A stretch of DNA of 64,000 nt from Gemmatimonadales bacterium (GCA_041741375.1 JBGSKF010000143.1:18633-82632); one strand, 5' to 3'. Shown: positions 8,132-37,584, counted from the first letter of the stretch. Program-made: numbers and translations. The notes: a model not told the origin generated them from the letters alone.

Positions 8132-9202
8132 ATGGAACCTCGTGCCCTGGCCTTTCTGAACTCCCTCCTGGATGCTCCGGGCCCCTCGGGGTTCGAGACG
8201 CTCCCGGCCAGGGTCTGGCGCACCGAGGCCGCCACCATCGCCGACACTGTCCGCGCCGATGTCAGCGGAAACTCCCACGCCACCCTCGGCGATCCCGACG
8301 CCCGGCCCCAGATCATGTTCGCGGGGCACATCGACGAAATCGGTCTCATGGTGGTGCACGTCGATGACGATGGGTTTCTGATGTTCGATCCGATCGGCGG
8401 GTGGGACCACCAGGTGTTCGTGGGGCAGCGGGTGACCCTCCTCGGCCGGGACGGCATGGTGGATGGGGTGATCGGCAAGAAGGCGATCCATCAGATCGAG
8501 CCGCCCGACCGGGAAAAAGTGTCCAAACCCGCCGACCTGTGGATCGACATCGGATCCACCTCGAAGCAGGAGACGCTGAGCCGGATCCGGATCGGCGATC
8601 CGGGAGTGCTGGCCGGGGGGGCGATGGCCTTTCCCAATGGACGGATCGTGAGCCGCTGCCTCGACAACCGGATCGGGGCCTTCGTGGTGCTCGAGGCGCT
8701 GCGATTGCTCTCCCACGACCGGCCCGCCGCCACCGTCACCGCCGTCGCCACCTCGCAGGAGGAGATCAGCTACACGGGAGGGGGGGCGCGCACCTCCGCC
8801 TCGGGCCTCCTCCCCACGGTGGCACTCGTCGTGGATGTGACCCACGCCTCGGATCACCCCGGCGCACCCAAGAAACGGCAGGGACCGGTCACCCTCGGCG
8901 GAGGACCGGTGCTGTCACGCGGAGCAGCCGTGAACGGGCCGGTGTTCGATCTGCTGGTGGACACGGCGGAGGCGGAAGGAATCCCCTACGCCCTCCAGGC
9001 GGCGCCCCGGATCACCGGCACCGACGCCGATGCCATCTTCACCGCCGCGGCCGGCGTCCCCACCGGACTCGTCTCCGTCCCCAACCGGTACATGCACAGC
9101 CCGAACGAGATGGTGGCGTTGGAAGATCTGGTGCTCACTGCCCGGCTGCTCGCCGCCTTCGCCCGGCGGGTCACCCCCGCCCACGACTTCATCCCGCGGT
9201 GA
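8132..9202 (+). CDS. M42 family metallopeptidase (glutamyl aminopeptidase / FrvX-like)
   Basis: ORF 8018..9202 from ATG 8132. Contains MFAGHIDEIGLMV, DNRIGAFVVLEAL and VATSQEEI. Confidence 0.85.
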   Translation: MEPRALAFLNSLLDAPGPSGFETLPARVWRTEAATIADTVRADVSGNSHATLGDPDARPQIMFAGHIDEIGLMVVHVDDDGFLMFDPIGGWDHQVFVGQRVTLLGRDGMVDGVIGKKAIHQIEPPDREKVSKPADLWIDIGSTSKQETLSRIRIGDPGVLAGGAMAFPNGRIVSRCLDNRIGAFVVLEALRLLSHDRPAATVTAVATSQEEISYTGGGARTSASGLLPTVALVVDVTHASDHPGAPKKRQGPVTLGGGPVLSRGAAVNGPVFDLLVDTAEAEGIPYALQAAPRITGTDADAIFTAAAGVPTGLVSVPNRYMHSPNEMVALEDLVLTARLLAAFARRVTPAHDFIPR

Positions 9203-9406: not shown

Positions 9407-10885
9407 TCTTGCGATCGCCTCCTCCGCCGCACGCGCCACCACCTCATCCGAGTCCTTCTCCAGGGCACGGAGCGCGGGGACCGCGGCGGGCCCTGCCAGG
9501 GCGAGGGCACCCACCGCGCCGAGCCGCTCACTGCGCGGACGACTCCGGAAGCGCTTCGCCTCCGGCTGAGCCGCCCGCAGAATCGCCTGGATCGTGTCCG
9601 GAGTTCCGATCCGCCCCAGAGTCCGGAGCATCTCGCGCCGGACGTCGGAGTGGGTCTCCCGTTCCAGCAGCGCCGCCAGCACCATCCCGATGGAACGCCC
9701 GCGTCGCCGGCCATCGAGGTGCATCAAGGCCTCGAGGCGCACCGGGGCCGCGGGGTCCCGGAGCATCTGGCGGATCGGTTCCATTGCCTGGGAGGTGCCA
9801 AGTTTGGCCAGGGCTCCCGCCACCGAGCGACGCACCCTCTCATCCTCGTGATGAATCCTCCTGGCCAGTTCAGGGATCGCCTCCACCAGGTCCATGTCGC
9901 CGCAGAGATCCGCCGCGTTCCGCACCACGTACCACACCGGGTGGCTCAGGTAATCGATGATGATCCCCGCGTTTTCTTTCATCTGCGTCAGGGCTGTGTA
10001 ATATCCCCGCCGTTCCGCCATGCCATCCGCCGTCGCCAGCATCTCCATGAGCACCTCGGCGGAGCGGCCCCCGACGTGACGAAGCAAGGTGGTCGCTTCC
10101 CGCCGGCGGGTCCCGGTCCCCGTGGCTCGCGCCAGACGGTTCAGTGCCTCACCCCCGATCAGACGCTGGAGCTCGATCCGGCAGGTGCGCTGGAACTCCT
10201 GGGTCGCGGCCGACACCAGAAGTTCCTCGATGGCCACTCCCACTGTGAGAAGGTCATCCCACTGCTCGGTGTCCCGGGCCATCGTGCCCCTCTCGACCAG
10301 ATGGGCGAGTTCCTCCCGGGCCGGGGAGGTATCCACATCCACCGGGGCGGATGCCCCTTGGACCAGGTCGAAATCCCGGATCAGGTCGGCTGTGGTCTCC
10401 TCCCCATGCGAAACGACACCACTCGCCGGCGCCGGGGAACTCTCCAACGTGATGGGATCCTCCGCGGCCAGGTTGTGGATGACCAGATCGGTCCCGCTTT
10501 CACGCAGCGTCACCTGGGTCCTGACGGCATCCCCGAGAGAACCGGCGAACGAGGCGAACGAGGCGTACGTACCTCCCGGTGCCGCCAGAGCGCGTGCCAC
10601 TGCCAGGACAGGTCCCTCGCCACAATTCCGGGGGAATTCCACGACCCCGACATGGTGGATCAGCAATGTATCGCTGAGAAGGGTCGCGCCCGGGGCCTCG
10701 GGGTGGATCGCATGCCCATTCACCCAGAGGGTCCGGACCTCCGCCGCCATCGAGAGCCCCGTTTCGGCGATGCCTTGCAGAACGCGGTCGGTCACGGCCC
10801 GGACGGTTCGATCCTTACCCGGAATGTGGCCGAGAACGTGCACCAGAAGGGCGAAATCCGTTGTCAAGATGTGCGGCGTCATCAT
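9392..10885 (-). CDS. HEAT-repeat domain protein
   Basis: ORF 9392..10903 (TTG); first ATG at 10885. The C-terminal half shows HEAT-like repeats: VRRSVAGALAKLG, VRLEALMHL, VRREMLRTLGRIG, VVARAAEEAI. Confidence 0.65.
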   Translation of the reverse strand: MMTPHILTTDFALLVHVLGHIPGKDRTVRAVTDRVLQGIAETGLSMAAEVRTLWVNGHAIHPEAPGATLLSDTLLIHHVGVVEFPRNCGEGPVLAVARALAAPGGTYASFASFAGSLGDAVRTQVTLRESGTDLVIHNLAAEDPITLESSPAPASGVVSHGEETTADLIRDFDLVQGASAPVDVDTSPAREELAHLVERGTMARDTEQWDDLLTVGVAIEELLVSAATQEFQRTCRIELQRLIGGEALNRLARATGTGTRRREATTLLRHVGGRSAEVLMEMLATADGMAERRGYYTALTQMKENAGIIIDYLSHPVWYVVRNAADLCGDMDLVEAIPELARRIHHEDERVRRSVAGALAKLGTSQAMEPIRQMLRDPAAPVRLEALMHLDGRRRGRSIGMVLAALLERETHSDVRREMLRTLGRIGTPDTIQAILRAAQPEAKRFRSRPRSERLGAVGALALAGPAAVPALRALEKDSDEVVARAAEEAIARINDQ

Positions 10886-10906
10886 GTGACGTGACCAGAG
10901 CAAGGA

Positions 10907-11713
10907 TCATGCACGCTCAGTCGCCAATCGGTGAGCGAGTCGGTCACGTCTCCATTCCCACTCTCCAAGCTCAAGTTTCGCAACGATATCCAACAGCGGA
11001 TGCCGAGGAACACCGGGCGTGGCGGAGCGGGACAGCAATCGGGAAACCGGGAGGTCATGGACAATCTTTCCGCCCTCGAGAACCACACCCCGGTCCAGAG
11101 TTTCCGCTGCGAATACCGGATCATGTGTCACCGCGAAGACACTTCCCCCGCCGTGGAGATGCTCCCGAAGGAGACGATGGACCAGCTCGCGACTCCTCAG
11201 GTCCAGCCCCGCGGTCGGTTCATCCAGGATGAGGAGACTCGGCTCCGTCACCAATATTGTCGCCATGGCCACCAGGCGGCGGTGCGGAGCCGGAAGATCC
11301 CAGGGATTTTCCAACCGGGCGCCCGGAAGACCCACCCTCTCCAGCACCTCCGCCGTCCTCCTCCTCGTCTCTTCCCGGCCTACCCCCATCTGTTCGAGCC
11401 CGAAGGTCACCTCCGCCTCCACCGTTCGGGCAAAGAGTTGGGCCTCCGGGTGCTGGAAGAGGTAGCCCGCCCGACCGGCAAGATCCTCCGGGTGACGCCC
11501 CCCGGTGCCGGTCCCCAGCGTGGTGACGGTCCCCGAGGTGGGATGCAGGAGTGCCATGGCGAGGCGGGTCAGGGTGGTCTTGCCCGCGCCGTTGGAGCCG
11601 AAGAGGCCCACGGCTTCGCCGGCTCCCACCTGGAAGGAGACGGCGTCCAGCACCGGCGGGCCATTGCGGTAATGGAAGGAGACATCAGAGAAATCGAGAT
11701 GGGGTGTCGTCAT
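10907..11713 (-). CDS. ECF/ABC transporter ATP-binding protein (canonical Walker A, degenerate signature)
   Basis: C-terminal 268 aa of ORF 10907..12466 from ATG 11713. Walker A GSNGAGKTT, Walker B LLILDEPTAGLD, H-loop AVTHD. LPAPH replaces LSGGQ. Confidence 0.85.
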   Translation of the reverse strand: MTTPHLDFSDVSFHYRNGPPVLDAVSFQVGAGEAVGLFGSNGAGKTTLTRLAMALLHPTSGTVTTLGTGTGGRHPEDLAGRAGYLFQHPEAQLFARTVEAEVTFGLEQMGVGREETRRRTAEVLERVGLPGARLENPWDLPAPHRRLVAMATILVTEPSLLILDEPTAGLDLRSRELVHRLLREHLHGGGSVFAVTHDPVFAAETLDRGVVLEGGKIVHDLPVSRLLSRSATPGVPRHPLLDIVAKLELGEWEWRRDRLAHRLATERA

Positions 11714-21836: not shown

Positions 21837-22058
21837 GGGTTCCTCCGGAGGTAATTTCCATTGGGAAAGATATCCTCGTCCCGACCAGCCCCTCAAGGGA
21901 GGACCCGGATGCTCTCGACAGCAAGGAGGAACTCGTGGTCACCTTCAACAGGGCGGTGTCGCAGCAACGGGCATCACACCTCGGACGACGGGAAGTACTC
22001 CTCCATGGTTCTCAGATCCCCTCGCGGGGCTCGGGGCAGGCTCCTCACTGCGTTCGGA

Positions 22059-23294
22059 ATGGCTTCCCTCTCACAGCCCCTCTCCCTCTCCCTCTCCCTC
22101 TCCCTCTCTCTCCTCCTCGGCTGCAGCGCACCGGAGGTCGATCCGCCGTCGGTGAGCACCGCCGACTCCGCGGGCGTCACCCTCGTCCACGTCCATCGGC
22201 TCGATGACCTCGACCTCCCGGTCTGGAAATCCGAGGTCGTCTTCTCCACCGGCTCTTCCGACTCGCTACTCTTCAACCGATTCGGTGTCGCCCTCTTCCT
22301 CCCCGACGGCTCCCTCCTCGTGGGGTCCGGCGTCGATCTCTTCCAACTCGACGCAAACGGTGCGTTGCGGCGCCGGATCGGACGCGCGGGAGATGGCCCC
22401 GGGGAGTTCCGCGGAATTGGACGCCTCCTGGTCACCGAGGACTCCCTGATCGCCGTGAGCGAAGCCTGGTTCGGGTCCGGGCGCATGACCGTGCTGCGGC
22501 CCGACGGGTCGGTGGCACAATACATCGCCCGGTTAGGCGGCGCGGTCTCCACCACCGAACGGGAGCCGATTGCGATCCTGGGCCGCGGAGTGATTCTGTC
22601 GACGTTCGGGCAATTCATGCCCAACCGGGGGGAACTGCCCGGCGTCCCCTCGGGCGAGCTGGAGCGGGATCCGATGCCTCTCTTCATCCACGACTCCACC
22701 GGCACGATCCGCGACACCCTCGGCTCCTGGCTCGGTCTGGAACGGGCCCGCCTGCTCCGGGACGGCCACACGGTCCGGATCACGGTACCCTTTGCCCGGA
22801 GCGTGGTCCACGACGGCCGAGGCGGGGTGGCGGTCATCGGGCCCACCGACTCGCTCGATCTGTCGGTGTATGACGGGGGGCGTCTGGCCCTGCGGATCAC
22901 CGGAACGGCACCCCATCGTCCCGTCACTCCGAAGCACCTCGAAGGGTGGCGGGCCGTGATGCAGACCTGGAATGGGAGTGATGGCCAGACCTTCCTCGAC
23001 CTGATGAAGAACGCTCCCCGGGTTCCCGAGCTCCCCGCAGTGGGTGCCGTGGTGGTGGACGACCAGCGGAATCTCTGGGTCGGCGGGTATGCTTCGGTGG
23101 GGGACACGGTGCGCACCTGGACCGTCTTTTCGCGGGAGGGCGTGCCGCTCGCACGGATCGACCTGCCGGCCGTGACCGATCCGGTGTTCCACGGGCCCCA
23201 TGAGCTGCTCGATGTCCAGGGGGATCGACTCGCGGTGCTCCGACCGGGTGAGGACGGGGAAGCAATCATCAAAGTCTGGCAGCTGCGGCGGTGA
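22059..23294 (+). CDS. six-bladed beta-propeller family lipoprotein
   Basis: ORF 21861..23294 from ATG 22059. Signal MASLSQPLSLSLSLSLSLLLGC. Contains the GDGPGEFRGIGRL motif and repeated blades. Confidence 0.65.
   Translation: MASLSQPLSLSLSLSLSLLLGCSAPEVDPPSVSTADSAGVTLVHVHRLDDLDLPVWKSEVVFSTGSSDSLLFNRFGVALFLPDGSLLVGSGVDLFQLDANGALRRRIGRAGDGPGEFRGIGRLLVTEDSLIAVSEAWFGSGRMTVLRPDGSVAQYIARLGGAVSTTEREPIAILGRGVILSTFGQFMPNRGELPGVPSGELERDPMPLFIHDSTGTIRDTLGSWLGLERARLLRDGHTVRITVPFARSVVHDGRGGVAVIGPTDSLDLSVYDGGRLALRITGTAPHRPVTPKHLEGWRAVMQTWNGSDGQTFLDLMKNAPRVPELPAVGAVVVDDQRNLWVGGYASVGDTVRTWTVFSREGVPLARIDLPAVTDPVFHGPHELLDVQGDRLAVLRPGEDGEAIIKVWQLRR
22079..22116. repeat. CTCTCC hexamer array inside a signal-peptide coding region
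   Basis: ctctccctctccctctccctctccctctctctcctcct, encoding (SL)n. Confidence 0.85.
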
Positions 23295-30748: not shown

Positions 30749-31461
30749 GGTCACCCAGGCGGAACAGTGACCCCACCCGCACCGATCCAAGCGGGTGGAA
30801 CGCTCGTGGGCACTGCGGAAAGGCGCCACGAGGATGTCCATCTGATATCAGATACCATAATAGAGAGATTGTGGGAGTCGCGCCAGCACGAATCTGCGCC
30901 AGAAGCGCAGCCCTGGCTCAGCCCACCCCTGACCATCCCCCAGCTCGATGTGGGGGTAAAGCTGACGGGATTCGGTGGGAAGTGGCGTCGAATCGGCCGC
31001 TGGGTGAACCCGACAGCCCGGCGGTCCGCCGCGTACCTCGGTGTGTCCGTGATTCTCAGGCAGCGACACTCTCCTGGCGCGGATCCGTGCTGGCGGCACT
31101 TGGCTGGAAGCGTTAGCGTGATGGGCGGGCATAGCGAACGGACGGCGGAACTCAGTCGAGCACCTCGATAGGGATGGAACTGGACTCGGCGTCTGCTGCT
31201 TGCGAGAGAGAAGGATGTCAGCCCATCTCAGGGAGCAGCGCCGTTCTTGGCGCGAATCCGTGCTGGCGGCACTCAACCTGAAGCGTTAGCGTATTAGCCG
31301 TCGCCAAGCAGGGGAATCGCACCCTGGGGTCCGGCCTTGTGAGGTGGAGGGTTATCGTGACTCATATGGACAGCGCTGCACGAATTGCAACCAGCCAACG
31401 CCCACGGTTTTCTCAGGGCTGGCACGGGGTCAAGAGAGGTCCCTTGGCGCGTAGTCGTGTA

Positions 31462-31914
31462 TTGGATCATCGAACGTGGCCGTGGGTCCGACTGTTGCTG
31501 GTGATTGGCTCCACAATGGTCGGGTGCTCGTCGAACGACATCGAACGGTTGCCACTGTCGGACGGTGCGCGGTTGAGTGACCTTACTTCGGGCGACAACG
31601 TGGCGATCCTCGTAATCGACCCGGCTGAGTGTGGCTCCTGCTCTCCAATTGTAACAACATGGATCCAACGGCACAGAGTGGATCCAGCGCAGGTGAAGTT
31701 GGTGTTGAGTCGGGCTCCCACGAGTCGAGAGCGCATCGATCTGAAACTGCAGCACATATCGGAAGACGGGGTGTTGAAGGATGGACTCGCTCGTCGGCTG
31801 ATCCTTGGATCAGGTGGGAGACGGCATCGCCCGGTGGCCATTGTCATGGAGAATGGCACCGCGGTGACCAGGTCGGACTTGGCCAGTGCACCTTGGGAAT
31901 CTGGAGGGCAATGA
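31462..31914 (+). CDS. thioredoxin-fold-like lipoprotein with CxxC
   Basis: ORF 31339..31914. TTG at 31462 gives (M)DHRTWPWVRLLLVIGSTMVGC (lipobox). AILVIDPAECGSCSP resembles a redoxin active site. Confidence 0.4.
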   Translation: MDHRTWPWVRLLLVIGSTMVGCSSNDIERLPLSDGARLSDLTSGDNVAILVIDPAECGSCSPIVTTWIQRHRVDPAQVKLVLSRAPTSRERIDLKLQHISEDGVLKDGLARRLILGSGGRRHRPVAIVMENGTAVTRSDLASAPWESGGQ

Positions 31915-31984
31915 CCGCGATTCGTTAGGTGCCAGCAGGTTGTGTGCCACGGCGGCATGCAAGAACCCTAGCAAGGAGAGCAGG

Positions 31985-32174
31985 ATGCGTCGTATCGTGC
32001 TGTTGACGGGTCTTTTTGGCCATCGGGTTCCTTGGAACCCTGTCCACCCGCACCTCGGCGGCCAGCGGAGGGCAGTACTGGGCTGATCTCTTCGGTTTCC
32101 CTGACTGCGTCTACAGTTGCGGGAACAATTCGGGGCACGACAAGTGCACGTGCTCCGAACCTCTCAACCCGTGA
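31985..32174 (+). CDS. small secreted four-cysteine peptide, readable only across a 1-nt shift in a T5 run
   Basis: aaggagag Shine-Dalgarno 5 nt before ATG 31985 (MRRIVLLTGL...). Dropping one T of 32013-32017 joins it to ...LAIGFLGTLSTRTSAASGGQYWADLFGFPDCVYSCGNNSGHDKCTCSEPLNP, stop at 32172-32174. Confidence 0.35.
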
Positions 32175-32210
32175 CGGTGAGTGCGGGTTGAGGAGTCGAC
32201 CCGCTGGAGT

Positions 32211-32248
32211 GCTTGTCCGGGGGCTGTGCGCATAACCCCCGGACAAGC
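32211..32248 (+). terminator. 13-bp perfect stem hairpin downstream of the small peptide ORF
   Basis: gcttgtccggggg (32211-32223), 12-nt loop, cccccggacaagc (32236-32248). No T-tract. Confidence 0.45.
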
Positions 32249-32367
32249 ATCGTCGTTGGAGAGAGGTTCGGCGGCGAGGTCGCGCCCGGGGGTCGTGTAG
32301 AAGTCCCCAGTGAACATGTAGAAGTTAGTCATCACCCGCCATCCCATGGAGTGACAATTACCTACCT

Positions 32368-33485
32368 ATGAAACAACCACATATCCTTCTGCTCGTCCTG
32401 GCCCTCGTGTCGACTTCTTGTATCGCCCCCTCAGGGTCGGACTCCAACTCCGGATCCGAAGAAGGTGCACCCGCACTCTCTCTCGTTGACTCCACCATTC
32501 TGCTCCTTCCAGACTCGGTACCCTGGGCAGGTTCGTCCATGTGGCGCGGGATGGAAGGAGACGGACCTACCTGAGTGATGTGGCATCGGGCAGGGTGATC
32601 CGGTTCAGCCGCAATGGCAATCTGGAGGCCATCTGGGGAAGGCGAGGATCTGGCCCAGGGGAATACAGGAGCATAGGGATGGTACACCCCCTCCCTGGCG
32701 ATACCCTTGCCGCCGTTTTCGATGAGGCATCCGCTCGTATTGACGTGCTTAGTCTCGATGATGGGGCGCTCCGGCGGACTCTGAGCGTGCCATTCCGAAG
32801 CACAGGAAAACAATGGACTTGGAAGGGAGATCGTGCTGTCTTCAGTCTTCCAGGCAGTCCATCGCTGATCGGAGTGTGGCATGCCGGACAGGACTCAACG
32901 GAGGTGTTGGGGATGGTACCGCCGGAGGTCATGGCGGGCTTGCCAACCTACATGCAGTACGGGCACTTGGAGCTGATCCCGTGGAGCGACGGGTTCCTTG
33001 CCCAGGTGCCCACCATGCCGGGTCTTCACCAGCTCGATGCCGCTGGCCTTGTCGTGGGTCATGTGCCTCTCCCGGCCGTGAAAAGGCGCGGACAGCCAAC
33101 GGACCTCCTGTTGCGCCATCAGGAAAAGGAATCCGCGGGACAACCGTTTGCGTACATCGGATCTGCAGCTGCCACCCTGGGCCATCTTTCCAGCGGAGAG
33201 GTGGCCGTAGTCCAGGTGGATATTGATGTAGAGAACGGCCCGCAGCGACAGGAGTTCACGAACCTGCGCTATTACGTCTCTATCGTCTCGGCCGACCTGC
33301 AACGAACATGTGCCGATGCCCTCGTCCCCTTCACCAGTGACTCTCCATTCCCAATCCCCCACCTGACTGGGGATACCTTGGTTGCTTTGGCTAGGGTAGT
33401 AAGCCCGAACGACAGCGTGCATACCATCGTGTACCGGTACGCGATCAGCTCCAACGGGTGCCGGTGGATGCCGAATCAAAGGTAG
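32368..33485 (+). pseudogene. six-bladed beta-propeller family lipoprotein, frameshifted after the signal peptide
   Basis: Lipoprotein signal MKQPHILLLVLALVSTSC is in ORF 32368..32574. The propeller body (GSGPGEYRSIG...) is in ORF 32541..33485. The frames differ by one nt. Confidence 0.55.
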
Positions 33486-34102
33486 GTCTGGACGGGGACC
33501 CTCCTCAGCGAACTGTTCCCGCCTCCGTCGTGGCGAAGGTGTGATGATGGATGCATGGCGCCATCCTCCCGGTCCAAGGACTCACCACCATCAGCGCCCA
33601 AGGAAGATGCGTCTTGAGTGTACACCGGAGCGTCACTCCGGCGAAGGCCACGTAGCGCAAAGTGCGGTGATGCCGGAAGTGCTGTGCGCTGCGCCCGCAG
33701 ATGCCACTACGCTCGGTCGCCATCCGAATTGCTAGCGGGTGGCGGCCGGGTCGCGTACGAGGCGGATGACCTCCAGGCTCACTCGACCCAGAAGTACGCG
33801 TGCCTTTGGAACCGTGTTGTTGTGATCGCACTCCAGGTATGGCTGGATTGGGAATGGCAATCGACGGGAGGGCTGGGACGCGGAAAGGTGGATGCCACAA
33901 GGAACTGCTGGGCGTCGGTGTACTCCTCTCCGGAGAGCTGGACGCCGCTCATGCGTCGTGGATTGCCAAGGTCTCGTTAGGTCTTGTAGGGGCGGCGACG
34001 GTTCCGTAAGAAACGTTGTATCTTGCCCGGCGGGCAGTGCAATGCGGTCGGCTGTGGGCTGTGTGGCTACCGGACGAGCGCGATGTTCCAAGGAGAGACG
34101 AC

Positions 34103-34940
34103 ATGGGTTGGAAGCGGCACGGTCTTATTGGCCCGATGAACGGCTCTCGATGGGGGGCGGGGACGAGCCTGATGGCGCTGGTTCTGGGCGTCCCTCCGCT
34201 CCATGCCCAGGGAGGTCTGAGAGGCAAGGTGGTTGACTCCGAAGGCGTGCGCCTCCCGGGAGTGGAAGTGGTGCTGCCGGAGGTGGGGCGTCAGGCGATG
34301 ACCGACAGTTCGGGCCTGAACCGCGTCATGGATATTCGAAAAGGCCGGTTCGAGGTCCTGTTCCGGCGGGTGGGGTACCAGCCCCTCCGGTTGCTGGTGA
34401 GTTTCACCGGGGGTTCAGGCGATGCCGTAGTGAATGTCGAGATGTCGCCGGAGGCCGTGGTGTTGCCGGAGGTGGAGACCAAGGCCCGGGGGCCGGAGGA
34501 GGTGCCCGTGAAGCTTCGGGAATGGGCCCGGCGCCGGCAGTTCAACGTGGGCGGGAAGTTCTGGGACGATTCGCTGTTGCGAACCCAGGAGTACAGACAG
34601 CTCCCGGAAGTGCTCCATGCCGTTCCCGGTGTCAGGATCATCCGGGCGATGGGTGGCCGGTATCTGGCCATCGGGGGGGGGGCGGGGAGCGAACGGCGTG
34701 CGAGGGGGTATGGATCCGAGGATTCCACCCGCGTGCTACGTCGAAGTATATCTCGATGGGGCGCGGCTCTCGTCGGCAGGAGTTCCCGTTAATCTCGACA
34801 ATATCCCGGTCCAGCAGATCGCCGCCATGGAGTTGTATCGCTCTGCCTCCGAGATGCCCGTCGAATTCAACTCCCCGGGAGCATCCTGTGGCGTCCTTGC
34901 CATCTGGACCCGGGTGGAAAGTGAGAAGGATGAAGGTTGA
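34103..34940 (+). pseudogene. CarboxypepD_reg plus plug-like secreted protein, interrupted at a G10 tract
   Basis: aaggagag before ATG 34103. N-part is in ORF 34016..34792 (GLRGKVVDSEGVRLPGVEVVL). C-part is in ORF 34617..34940 (CYVEVYLDGARL...CGVLAIWTR). The switch is at the G10 run 34673-34682. Confidence 0.6.
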
Positions 34941-35136: not shown

Positions 35137-37584
35137 TCACCCGCCCCGCATCACCATCGCCGGATCCACCCGCGCAGCACGCAGCGCCGGAAGCCAGCAC
35201 GCCACGAGCCCCACCGTCACCATTACCAGTGCTACGAGGATCAGTGTCACCGGATCGTGCGGGGCCACGCCGAACAGGAGACCGCGGATGATGCGGGTCG
35301 CGAACAGCGCCCCGGCGATCCCCAGCACCAGGCCGATGCCGAGCAGTGTGCCACCCTCGCGGATCACCATTCCCTGCACCCGGCTCTGGTCGGCGCCCAG
35401 GCTCATCCGGATCCCGATCTCCAGGGTCCGGGCGCTCACCGAGAATGCCAGCACCCCGGCGATGCCGACGGCGGCGATGAGCACCGCCAGGAGTCCGAAG
35501 GCGCCGATGAGGGCGGCGTTCAGGCGGCGGGGCGCCACGCTCTGGCCCTTGATCTCCGACAGGGTCAGCACGTTCTCGATCGGATCCCGGGGGGCGATGT
35601 TCCGCACCAGCCGGGTCGCAGCCGCTCCCAGAGCGGACGCATCCTGCTCGGAGCGGATCACCAGGCCGCCGGCGAACACCACCTCCTGGGCAAAGGGCTG
35701 GAACAGAACGGGGCGTGGCTCGACATCGAGTCCTCCGTCCCGCGTGTCGCCCACCACGCCAACCACCGTGCGCCAGTCGCCCGTCACCGGAATGAATCGC
35801 AGCACGTCCCCGGTCCACGCCACCCGCTGACCGATCGGGTCCCGGTCCCCGAAGAGCCGTTTGCTCAGCGTCTCGTTGAGGATCACCACCAGGGCGCTCC
35901 CCTCGATGTCGGTGGAGGTGAACTCCCGTCCCCGCAGCACCGGGATCCCGGCCGCCCGGAAATACTCGGGACTCGCCGTGCGATACTCGGCGCGCGGGAT
36001 CGCCTCGCCGACGGCCAGGGCCCGCCCTTCCGCCTTCAACTCGAGTTGGAAGTCCGAGGAGCGGAGGGGGATCACCGAACCGACTCCCACGTCGCGCACC
36101 CCGGGGATCGCGGCGATCTCGTACTTCATCCGGTCGTAGAGCGCCCTGGTGGCGTCGTTGTCTCCATCTCCGCCGCTGACCGGCACTTCCATCGTGAGGA
36201 CCTCGCTCTCGCCCCCGGTGAGACCGGTGTCCACCTCCGAGAGTCGGAGCATGGTGCGGGTCAGGAGGCCCGCTCCGGTCAGGAGGATCACGGAGACGGC
36301 GACCTGAGCCACGACAAGCGCGCGTTGGAGCCGTTGGCGGCGCAGGGTGCCGCTGGCGCGCGCCACGCCCTGGGCCATCCAGGTGCCGAGGGTTCCCTCC
36401 CGGGCGAGCCGCGGCGCGAAGGAGAGGAGGAGGGCCACGGCCACGGTCAGCACCAGGGTGAAGCCCAGGACCATGGCGTCGAGCCGGATTTCCCCGGCCC
36501 GGGGAGAAACCCGTTCCGCGAAGGCGATGAGGAGCTGCAACCCGCCCGCGGCCAGTACGAGACCCAGGACGGCGCCACCCAGGGCCAGCACCAGGTTCTC
36601 CACCAGAAGCAGGCGGCGGAGGCGGCCGGCCCCGGCCCCCAGCGCGGCCCGGATCACCAGTTCATGCTCGCGTCGCACCCCGCGCATCAGGGTCAGGTTG
36701 GCGACGTTGGCGGCGGAAATGATCATCACGAAGGCCGCGGCGCCCATCAGGAGCCAGAGGGTCAGGCGCGCGCGCTCGCCGAGCACCTCGTGGAAGGGAG
36801 TGAGGGTGACGCGGTATCCGGACGCGGCATCGTAGGCGTCGGGGTGATCGGCCTGGACCCGGGCGCGGATCGTCTCCACCTCGCTGCGGGCCTGGGGCAG
36901 CGTGGCGCCGGGAGCCAGGCGGGCGATCATCTCCGTCATCCGGTGGGTTCGGCCCGTCACCATCATGGCGCTGGTGTGGTGCTCGCTGATCACCATGTTC
37001 ATCAGCGCATCCATCCGGTTCGGGAAGGTGGGGGCAGGCTCCACCACGCCAACCACCGTCACCGCTCGTCCGTCCACCAGGATCGTCTGTCCGACGATCC
37101 CACTGTCCCCCTGGAACCGCTTCAACCAGTACTCGTGGGTCAGGACCATCACGGGAGGCACGGCGGTGCCGTCGTCTCCGTCGGTCAGCAGCCGGCCCAG
37201 GGCCGGAGCGAGGCCCATGACCTGGAAATAGTTTCCGGTGACGAGCCCGACGGTCATCCGGACCGCGTCGTTGTCCCCCTGGAGGGTGTAGGTCATGGGG
37301 GAGTACTCGGCGATCCCCCCAAGGGTACTGGCGCCTTCCCGGAAGTCGTCGATTTCGGGCACGGAGAAGAGCACGTTCTCTCCGCCCGGGCCTTCGACCG
37401 ACTGGCGGAGGTAGACCAGCCGGTCGCCGTCGCGATGGGGAAGGGGACGGAGGAGCACGCCGCGCACCACGCTGAAGATGGCGGTGTTGGCGCCGATGCC
37501 GAGCCCGAGCGTCAGGACCACGGTGAGGGTGAAGCCGTGGGCCTTGGCGAGGGAGCGCAGGGAGAAGCGGAGATCAGCGAGCAT
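35137..37584 (-). CDS. ADOP-family duplicated MacB/FtsX-like ABC permease
   Basis: ORF 35137..37584 (815 aa). MLADLRFSLRSLAKAHGFTLTVVLTLGLGIGANTAIFSVV..., two FtsX modules. Confidence 0.9.
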   Translation of the reverse strand: MLADLRFSLRSLAKAHGFTLTVVLTLGLGIGANTAIFSVVRGVLLRPLPHRDGDRLVYLRQSVEGPGGENVLFSVPEIDDFREGASTLGGIAEYSPMTYTLQGDNDAVRMTVGLVTGNYFQVMGLAPALGRLLTDGDDGTAVPPVMVLTHEYWLKRFQGDSGIVGQTILVDGRAVTVVGVVEPAPTFPNRMDALMNMVISEHHTSAMMVTGRTHRMTEMIARLAPGATLPQARSEVETIRARVQADHPDAYDAASGYRVTLTPFHEVLGERARLTLWLLMGAAAFVMIISAANVANLTLMRGVRREHELVIRAALGAGAGRLRRLLLVENLVLALGGAVLGLVLAAGGLQLLIAFAERVSPRAGEIRLDAMVLGFTLVLTVAVALLLSFAPRLAREGTLGTWMAQGVARASGTLRRQRLQRALVVAQVAVSVILLTGAGLLTRTMLRLSEVDTGLTGGESEVLTMEVPVSGGDGDNDATRALYDRMKYEIAAIPGVRDVGVGSVIPLRSSDFQLELKAEGRALAVGEAIPRAEYRTASPEYFRAAGIPVLRGREFTSTDIEGSALVVILNETLSKRLFGDRDPIGQRVAWTGDVLRFIPVTGDWRTVVGVVGDTRDGGLDVEPRPVLFQPFAQEVVFAGGLVIRSEQDASALGAAATRLVRNIAPRDPIENVLTLSEIKGQSVAPRRLNAALIGAFGLLAVLIAAVGIAGVLAFSVSARTLEIGIRMSLGADQSRVQGMVIREGGTLLGIGLVLGIAGALFATRIIRGLLFGVAPHDPVTLILVALVMVTVGLVACWLPALRAARVDPAMVMRGG

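Follow-up and report, generated by a model that had tools for sequence, protein, structure and literature searches.

A short open reading frame in a 64 kb stretch of Gemmatimonadales DNA (the window, 65.4% G+C) raises the question of whether a gene for a small secreted peptide is hidden there, and whether that gene is intact, misread or dead. Coordinates are those of the window and the features of the locus are on the + strand. The Shine-Dalgarno-like sequence AAGGAGAG is present at positions 31973–31980, 4 nt before an ATG at 31985, as the first-pass annotation had reported. The literal frame from this ATG stops after 33 codons (MRRIVLLTGLFGHRVPWNPVHPHLGGQRRAVLG), which agrees with the 33 aa product described there. 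The same annotation had proposed that removal of one T from a run of five (T5, positions 32013–32017) gives a product with a signal peptide and four cysteines. Translation after this removal reproduces the proposed sequence exactly, i.e. a 62 aa chain, MRRIVLLTGLLAIGFLGTLSTRTSAASGGQYWADLFGFPDCVYSCGNNSGHDKCTCSEPLNP. Rfam and tRNA scans of the window found nothing.

The peptide gene, in its frameshifted form, spans positions 31985–32177. Codons 1–10 are in the frame of the ATG and the remainder is in the +1 frame until TGA 32175–32177. The +1 frame is open from a TTG at 32016 to this TGA and holds the cysteine-rich part. In the repaired product a predicted signal peptide, MRRIVLLTGLLAIGFLGTLSTRTSAA, precedes 36 aa of mature peptide, which display an invariant Trp and the motif C-x3-C-x8-C-x-C. 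By inspection, the repaired product has the properties of a Sec-type signal peptide, namely a positive n-region (MRR), a hydrophobic h-region (IVLLTGLLAIGFLGTL) of the kind that extends over about 10–15 residues, and small residues at −3 and −1 (TSAA↓S). A charged n-region, an h-region and small −3/−1 residues are seen, also by inspection, in 12 of 12 members of the family described below.

The repaired product has intact homologs. It matches the 62 aa protein P0001 with an E-value of 9e-28 and 82% identity, and P0002, a cluster mate of P0001, is 87% identical to it. Both start with MRRIVLLTGLLAIGFLGTL, which is the junction predicted by removal of one T. The hidden peptide gene is therefore real, because the corrected reading matches intact 62 aa homologs at 82–87% identity, and judged from the sequences the match is far beyond chance. 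The gene of P0002 is present in the Gemmatimonadales MAG GCA_039794085.1 (Bin_42, locus L001), where the intact three-gene cassette described below spans 9421–11507, and independently in a Logan contig (L002). The window and L001 show 79.5% nucleotide identity over positions 31539–33489 only, and the flanks are unrelated. Approximately 45 nt around AAGGAGAG are nearly identical in L001, compared with the 79.5% across the whole homologous block. In the pairwise DNA alignment, CTTTTTG of the window is aligned with C-CTTCTG of L001, thus the window has one base too many. The dN/dS values between the window and L001 are 0.19 for the peptide gene, 0.15 for the propeller gene downstream and 0.12 for the CxxC protein gene upstream (both described below). 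This indicates past purifying selection on all three genes for most of the divergence of the window and L001.

A profile of three peptides, searched exhaustively with HMMER against 1.84 billion representatives, gave 13 matches. Eight of these are further signal-peptide proteins, 59–80 aa in length, which share the core [KY]W..L.GFPDC.YSCG.N.GH.KCTC. An additional family member comes from a GTDB genome (L021). In the alignment of 12 family sequences, with the repaired window copy included, one Trp and four Cys are invariant. The relatives all have a single unshifted open reading frame, and their predicted mature peptides are mostly anionic (pI 4–5.5). Neither the peptide nor the family alignment gave a meaningful match when searched against Pfam, NCBIfam and the PDB sequences. 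A metagenome contig scan with the family alignment gave no confirmed match, and a genome contig scan with P0001 gave none among the matches listed.

Upstream of the peptide gene is an intact gene at positions 31357–31914, which is predicted to encode a membrane-anchored, lipoprotein-like protein with a thioredoxin fold. The open reading frame opens at GTG 31339, and the start supported by a GGAGG sequence, GTG 31357, gives a chain length of 185 aa, as in P0011, a protein 99% identical to that of the window. The CGSC codons are at positions 31630–31641, following a lipobox-like TMVGC. Homologs bearing a CxxC are found in six other loci; the CxxC is kept in 6 of 7 homologs and a conserved Pro also in 6 of 7, with the motif variants CGSC, CSSC, CLVC, CLQC and CLTC. 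The thioredoxin-like protein of L018 (positions 460–930 of that locus) displays LVSC in place of the CxxC and is without the conserved Pro, while the peptide and propeller there look normal. Redox help is therefore not universal, and the thioredoxin-like helper may not always act by redox chemistry.

An AF2 model of the mature CxxC protein, computed from a 3-sequence alignment, is of moderate confidence (pLDDT 68, pTM 0.64). In the model C36 and C39 start helix 33–49, which follows strand 27–31, and the conserved Pro103 precedes strand 104–109. The top 25 Foldseek matches in the PDB are ResA, DsbE, TlpA, FetE and membrane-anchored thioredoxin-family proteins, and StoA appears later; the E-values are 2e-4 to 1e-3, with a probability of 1.00 and TM scores of 0.4–0.5. 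Pfam shows no family for the window protein, P0011 or P0012 at E ≤ 0.1–1, Redoxin, AhpC-TSA and Thioredoxin_8 included, and the sole NCBIfam match is a weak sub-threshold one to GST. According to the model, the protein is thioredoxin-like in fold and extracytoplasmic, and it matches no curated family model. The earlier description of this upstream neighbour as a thioredoxin-like CGSC lipoprotein agrees with the CGSC, the lipobox-like TMVGC and the ResA/TlpA-like model.

Downstream, positions 32368–33485 carry a gene for a lipoprotein with a six-bladed beta-propeller of the NHL type. It is also frameshifted, which is absent from the earlier description of the locus. The gene is split into a segment at 32368–32574, whose first 52 codons include the lipoprotein signal LALVSTSC, and an open reading frame at 32541–33485, which holds the propeller body. 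The window reads GTACCCTGG, with a run of three Cs at 32521–32523 (C3), where relatives read DSVPLGRFVHVARDG and need four (C4). Insertion of one C gives a 372 aa lipoprotein collinear with that of L002.

The profile of the propeller family matches TRIM71 (4e-23), PAL (2e-9) and Bacteroides BF0058 (4raa, 2e-6) in the PDB, and it also matches the NHL domains of Thin and Pizza (E-values for NHL domains range from 3e-23 to 2e-9). An AF2 model of the homolog P0006, with a moderate pLDDT of 71, matches the Brat NHL domain, 4raa and 3s9j with E-values of about 1e-9. The designation of the downstream neighbour as a beta-propeller lipoprotein thus holds, on the LALVSTSC signal and the NHL profile and fold matches. 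For the Pfam family PF17170 (DUF5128), P0005 scores 23.1 bits against a cut-off of 22.9, other homologs score 10–17 bits and the window open reading frame shows no hit. A zinc enzyme of the PAL type is unlikely, given that the alignment of 10 propeller sequences has no (nearly) invariant His or Tyr; the similarity to PAL (3fvz) is confined to the NHL blades. Among GTDB species genomes the propeller family is overwhelmingly found in Gemmatimonadota (Gemmatimonadales, Longimicrobiales).

Elsewhere in the window, a 477 aa open reading frame at 21861–23294 is a distant propeller relative with NHL-like blades (profile E = 1.6e-9), and no Cys-rich small open reading frame is found beside it. Propeller genes also occur in tandem arrays: L021 has three of them, L001 has a pair side by side and one other, and arrays are noted for L029 as well.

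Between the peptide and propeller genes, 34 nt after the peptide stop codon, is a GC-rich hairpin at 32211–32248. Its arms are at 32211–32223 and 32236–32248, which is the 13 bp perfect hairpin that had been claimed; pairing extends to about 15. The hairpin region has a predicted fold of −63 kcal/mol (z = −6.2), equalled by no shuffle. L001 retains the hairpin, with a T:A pair replaced in a compensatory way by A:T, and GC-rich hairpins of unrelated sequence are located 3′ of the peptide gene in at least L014, L016, L017 and L018. As a U tail is missing, the hairpin was not picked up by the terminator scan. Beyond the hairpin, and before the start codon of the propeller gene, there is also an imperfect 20 nt tandem repeat at 32285–32325 (CCCGGGGGTCGTGTAGAAGT / CCCAGTGAACATGTAGAAGT), which could be a promoter or operator element.

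The order of CxxC protein, peptide and propeller genes is found in L001/L002, L014/L015, L016, L017, L018/L019, L023 and L024. Every family peptide with fetched flanks is directly upstream of a propeller homolog of 370–380 aa, and where upstream sequence exists, the family peptides are directly downstream of a CGSC protein homolog of 146–190 aa; in L021, peptide and propeller are present. The co-occurrence of peptide and CxxC protein, which the first-pass annotation had named as a point to be checked, is seen in every family locus with enough flank, and the propeller lipoprotein is present there too. The relatives thus confirm what had been predicted, a hidden peptide gene with an oxidoreductase beside it. 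A CxxC homolog with 28% identity (CLQC) led to a further locus with the same three-gene order, L012. In L012 the peptide slot (1641–1850) is filled by an unrelated 69 aa signal-peptide open reading frame with six Cys and no Trp. L024 (954–1623) shows two tandem peptide genes in the same position, whose mature parts contain six or seven Cys. The peptide slot diversifies much faster than its partner genes.

The propeller is also found without the other two genes. Orthologs at 55–58% identity (L006–L011, L020) have no peptide or CxxC gene, therefore the partnership is not obligatory for the propeller. Propeller loci often have unrelated small open reading frames that display a signal peptide and a Cys-rich tail (L026, L029, L043, L047, L049 and L059; further L061, L062, L066, L073, L093 and L097). 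In L026, L029, L047, L049, L059, L061, L062, L066, L093 and L097 these small open reading frames are often paired and near distant propellers, also outside of the Gemmatimonadales, e.g. in Longimicrobium (L047, L049, L093) and Stygiobacter electus (L066). The same filter, a crude one with no controlled statistic, found none in the 64 kb window.

The cassette block at 31250–33750 has a G+C content of 59–61%, compared with 65% for the window and 68–72% for the flanking genes. The low G+C, together with the similarity to L001 that ends at the borders, therefore suggests from composition and alignment that the block is a distinct and movable unit. Upstream of the CxxC gene is a 48 nt direct repeat (31072–31119 and 31245–31292; 85% identical, 173 nt apart), with a partial inverted copy at 30875–30921. 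Each direct copy ends a small open reading frame (...SVLAAL..KR followed by a stop codon). Beyond these copies the window does not contain the repeat, nor do the fetched loci apart from L003, which has the same sequence as the window. L006 and L010 have an unbroken 302 aa gene whose counterpart in the Bin_42 MAG (L001, positions 8289–9199) is in two pieces of 140 and 163 aa; therefore broken genes beside the cassette are not unique to the window.

Whether the two frameshifts of the cassette are present in the organism was approached through Logan per-run assemblies, which were reached via the CxxC protein and the propeller fragment. L003 (SRR28170468), L004 (SRR28170467) and L005 (SRR28170466) show 100% identity to the window along 7077, 3270 and 1632 bp, respectively. 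T5 is present in L003 and L004, i.e. in two sequencing runs, and C3 is identical in all three; this evidence is at the assembly level, and SRR28170466–68 may be source data of the genome, so that a systematic error is possible. An intact 62 aa allele of the window peptide is not found in a collection of 5.8 billion proteins, and an exact-pattern scan of JGI metagenome contigs found neither a T4 nor a T5 allele. The window has only 8 runs of five or more Ts.

The frameshift burden of the window was checked by GC3 frame analysis and Pfam. The large genes in other parts of the window (815, 894 and 962 aa) are uninterrupted. The GC3 frameshift candidates at 3.1–4.4 kb, 10.9–12.9 kb and 12.5–14.4 kb have no Pfam support for a split gene. 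The pair of open reading frames at 3.1–4.4 kb has no family in common, and those at 10.9–14.4 kb carry separate domains of the ECF-transporter type (ABC_tran twice, CbiQ and a weak match to an S-component). The only site that held up is a third split gene at 34016–34940 (CarboxypepD_reg and Plug-like), 2.5 kb away, which is broken at a run of ten Gs (34673–34682); its relatives in L086 and L076 have one continuous open reading frame. The run could be phase-variable, the gene could be a pseudogene, or the assembly could be wrong at this long homopolymer; the split may point to problems in the local assembly or just as well to a region in decay.

We consider it probable, at roughly 60%, that the locus is a copy of a conserved three-gene peptide cassette of Gemmatimonadota that was recently inactivated here. 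Gene 1 of this cassette is that of the membrane-anchored or lipoprotein thioredoxin-fold CxxC protein, gene 2 that of a precursor of 55–80 aa, in which a Sec-type signal peptide is followed by roughly 30–40 mature residues bearing the invariant Trp and four Cys, and gene 3 that of the NHL-type six-bladed beta-propeller lipoprotein. The peptide would be exported by Sec and cleaved after SAA, and its four Cys could form two periplasmic disulfides, made or shuffled with the help of the co-encoded thioredoxin-like protein. It may then act with the propeller lipoprotein, most likely as a binding partner, either in self-protection or as the ligand of a receptor. The hairpin probably stabilises the peptide transcript, or it limits read-through or partially terminates, which would give more peptide than propeller. 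In the window copy, the change from T4 to T5 would truncate the peptide after the signal-peptide core, and that from C4 to C3 would part the propeller from its lipoprotein signal; the CxxC gene would be the sole intact cassette gene in this genome. The gene family, its gene order, the folds and the frameshifts with their recurrence are shown by the comparisons above, whereas export, disulfides, the pairing of peptide and propeller and the part played by the hairpin are inferred.

Inactivation has to be weighed against three ways in which a working peptide could still be made. The first-pass annotation had implied a sequencing error at T5, and if the extra T and the missing C both arose in sequencing or assembly, the organism would carry two unbroken genes and a working cassette. 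Each lesion alters the length of a homopolymer by one base, a third split gene is found close by at the G10 run, all three cassette genes display purifying selection and the translation start region is almost perfectly conserved, all of which would fit such errors. T5 and C3, however, are too short for typical error sites. They recur in two (T5) and three (C3) per-run assemblies that are 100% identical to the window over 1.6–7.1 kb, the large genes of the window are open while its other suspected frameshifts are separate genes, and the intact allele is assembled nowhere in the collections searched. Errors are thus unlikely. The peptide gene has an extra base relative to L001, repeated in per-run assemblies, and a second lesion is present in the same cassette, again at the assembly level; two short-homopolymer indels in one cassette, reproduced in run-level assemblies, are therefore best read as real mutations. 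Alternatively, the ribosome could shift by +1 at CUU_UUU_G, as in the P-site slip of prfB, or the polymerase could slip on the T run. A +1 slip of tRNA-Leu from CUU to UUU does give the exact family sequence ...TGLLAIGF..., and the CUU_U of a prfB-type site is present, but the other elements of such a site are missing: the A-site codon UUU is an ordinary sense codon and not a stop, there is no well-spaced internal Shine-Dalgarno stimulator, and the shift is not conserved, as the relatives all have a single open reading frame. The second lesion, GUA_CCC_UGG, has no slippery motif, and a run of five Ts is too short for transcriptional slippage. We consider programmed recoding very improbable. 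Translation from TTG 32016 would need no frameshift at all and would give a 52 aa product (MAIGFLGTLSTRTSAASGG...) from the open frame 32016–32174, which contains the whole mature part. Such a product, however, is without the positive n-region and half of the hydrophobic core present in every homolog, no Shine-Dalgarno sequence precedes the TTG, and the conserved Shine-Dalgarno and ATG at 31973–31987 would be wasted; this reading is given almost no weight. The sequence comparisons thus favor a peptide gene that is probably a real pseudogene in this genome, with both the peptide and propeller genes recently inactivated and most likely dead.

As to what the intact cassette does in its relatives, the first-pass annotation had offered a disulfide-rich bacteriocin or a signal peptide; the role of a subunit may be added to these. 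A family peptide could be a classical secreted bacteriocin, with the propeller as its immunity protein. The peptides are hypervariable, Cys-rich and sometimes in tandem (L024), propellers form tandem arrays and also occur as orphans without a peptide, and a thioredoxin-like helper is known for the four-Cys pediocin PA-1 (PedC, PMC4919988). Diversification, tandem copies and orphan propellers would fit a toxin/immunity logic. However, most predicted mature peptides are anionic (pI 4–5.5), and the cassette has no double-glycine leader, C39/ABC exporter or outer-membrane export route; the charge and the missing exporter therefore argue against a classical bacteriocin. With regard to class II bacteriocins in particular, the cassettes display a Sec-type signal instead of a GG leader and no C39/ABC exporter. 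A nearby ADOP/MacB-like permease (35137–37584) is on the opposite strand and outside of the block conserved with L001. RiPP modifying enzymes (radical SAM, YcaO, LanB/C/M) are absent from the Pfam/NCBIfam scans of the neighbouring window genes, and none is seen among the Pfam marks on the called genes of L001–L019. A classical bacteriocin is thus rather doubtful. Of wider scope is the tentative possibility that the cassette represents a peptide system in the periplasm of Gemmatimonadota that is as yet undescribed and has relatives in Longimicrobiales and in a small number of other phyla. Fast-diversifying Cys-rich peptides would there be paired with NHL propellers and served by a private thioredoxin-like maturase, as a polymorphic toxin/immunity or kin-recognition system. 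If true, this system would be unrelated in sequence to the known bacteriocin classes and the window copy would be one caught mid-decay.

Small secreted peptides are systematically missed by genome annotation, and the Gemmatimonadota, which are abundant in soil, are almost unexplored for peptide-based interactions. A single odd open reading frame has here led to a testable family of twelve aligned sequences whose gene partners, for the thioredoxin-like protein and the NHL propeller lipoprotein, are fixed, and to a broader pattern of unrelated Cys-rich small open reading frames beside related propellers. The cassette is a defined three-gene unit for heterologous expression. As the window copy is most likely a pseudogene of recent origin, it is better annotated in that way than repaired.

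The three components can be compared with several known systems. The CxxC protein finds its best structural matches in ResA, TlpA, CcmG (DsbE) and StoA, with which it would share membrane anchoring, orientation toward the periplasm, a CxxC that opens helix 1 and a conserved Pro ahead of a strand; with TM scores of 0.4–0.5 this is a likeness in fold only. Those proteins serve in cytochrome c or copper-centre maturation and not in that of a co-encoded peptide.

The propeller resembles the Bacteroidetes families DUF5128 (4raa, BF0058) and DUF4221 (3s9j), which are likewise exported lipoproteins with a six-bladed propeller of the NHL type. The likeness to DUF5128 differs in degree, as one homolog only (P0005) is just above the cut-off and the window protein shows no hit. 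To our knowledge, no function is known for either family. DUF5128 and DUF4221 lipoproteins adjoin small NVEALA peptides, which is of interest as a lead only. A literature search found no paper on DUF5128, DUF4221, NVEALA or such a cassette.

In the mau and qhp clusters, a beta-propeller subunit is encoded together with a small Cys-rich, Trp-containing subunit, and mau also has the thioredoxin-like MauD. The propeller subunits of these clusters are seven-bladed. The resemblance is architectural only, as the cassette has no MauG, radical SAM, haem or amicyanin gene and its propeller has six NHL-type blades. The peptide as the small subunit of a TTQ/CTQ quinoprotein was rejected, since there are no accessory genes and the L012 peptide is without a Trp.

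The nearest functional analogue is the operon of pediocin PA-1, where a small four-Cys exported peptide is also encoded beside a dedicated thioredoxin-like protein. PedC, a putative thiol-disulfide oxidoreductase, improves the correct disulfide formation of this peptide (PMC4919988). The two differ in most other respects and show no sequence similarity: the pediocin peptide is cationic (YGNGV), carries a double-glycine leader, leaves through an ABC/C39 exporter and comes with a small immunity protein, whereas the cassette peptide is anionic and has a signal peptide for Sec, no exporter is encoded, and the third gene is that of an NHL propeller lipoprotein. The peptide family and the three-gene cassette appear to be undescribed; the general plan, in which a secreted disulfide peptide is accompanied by a dedicated thioredoxin-like helper, would by analogy be one that is already known.
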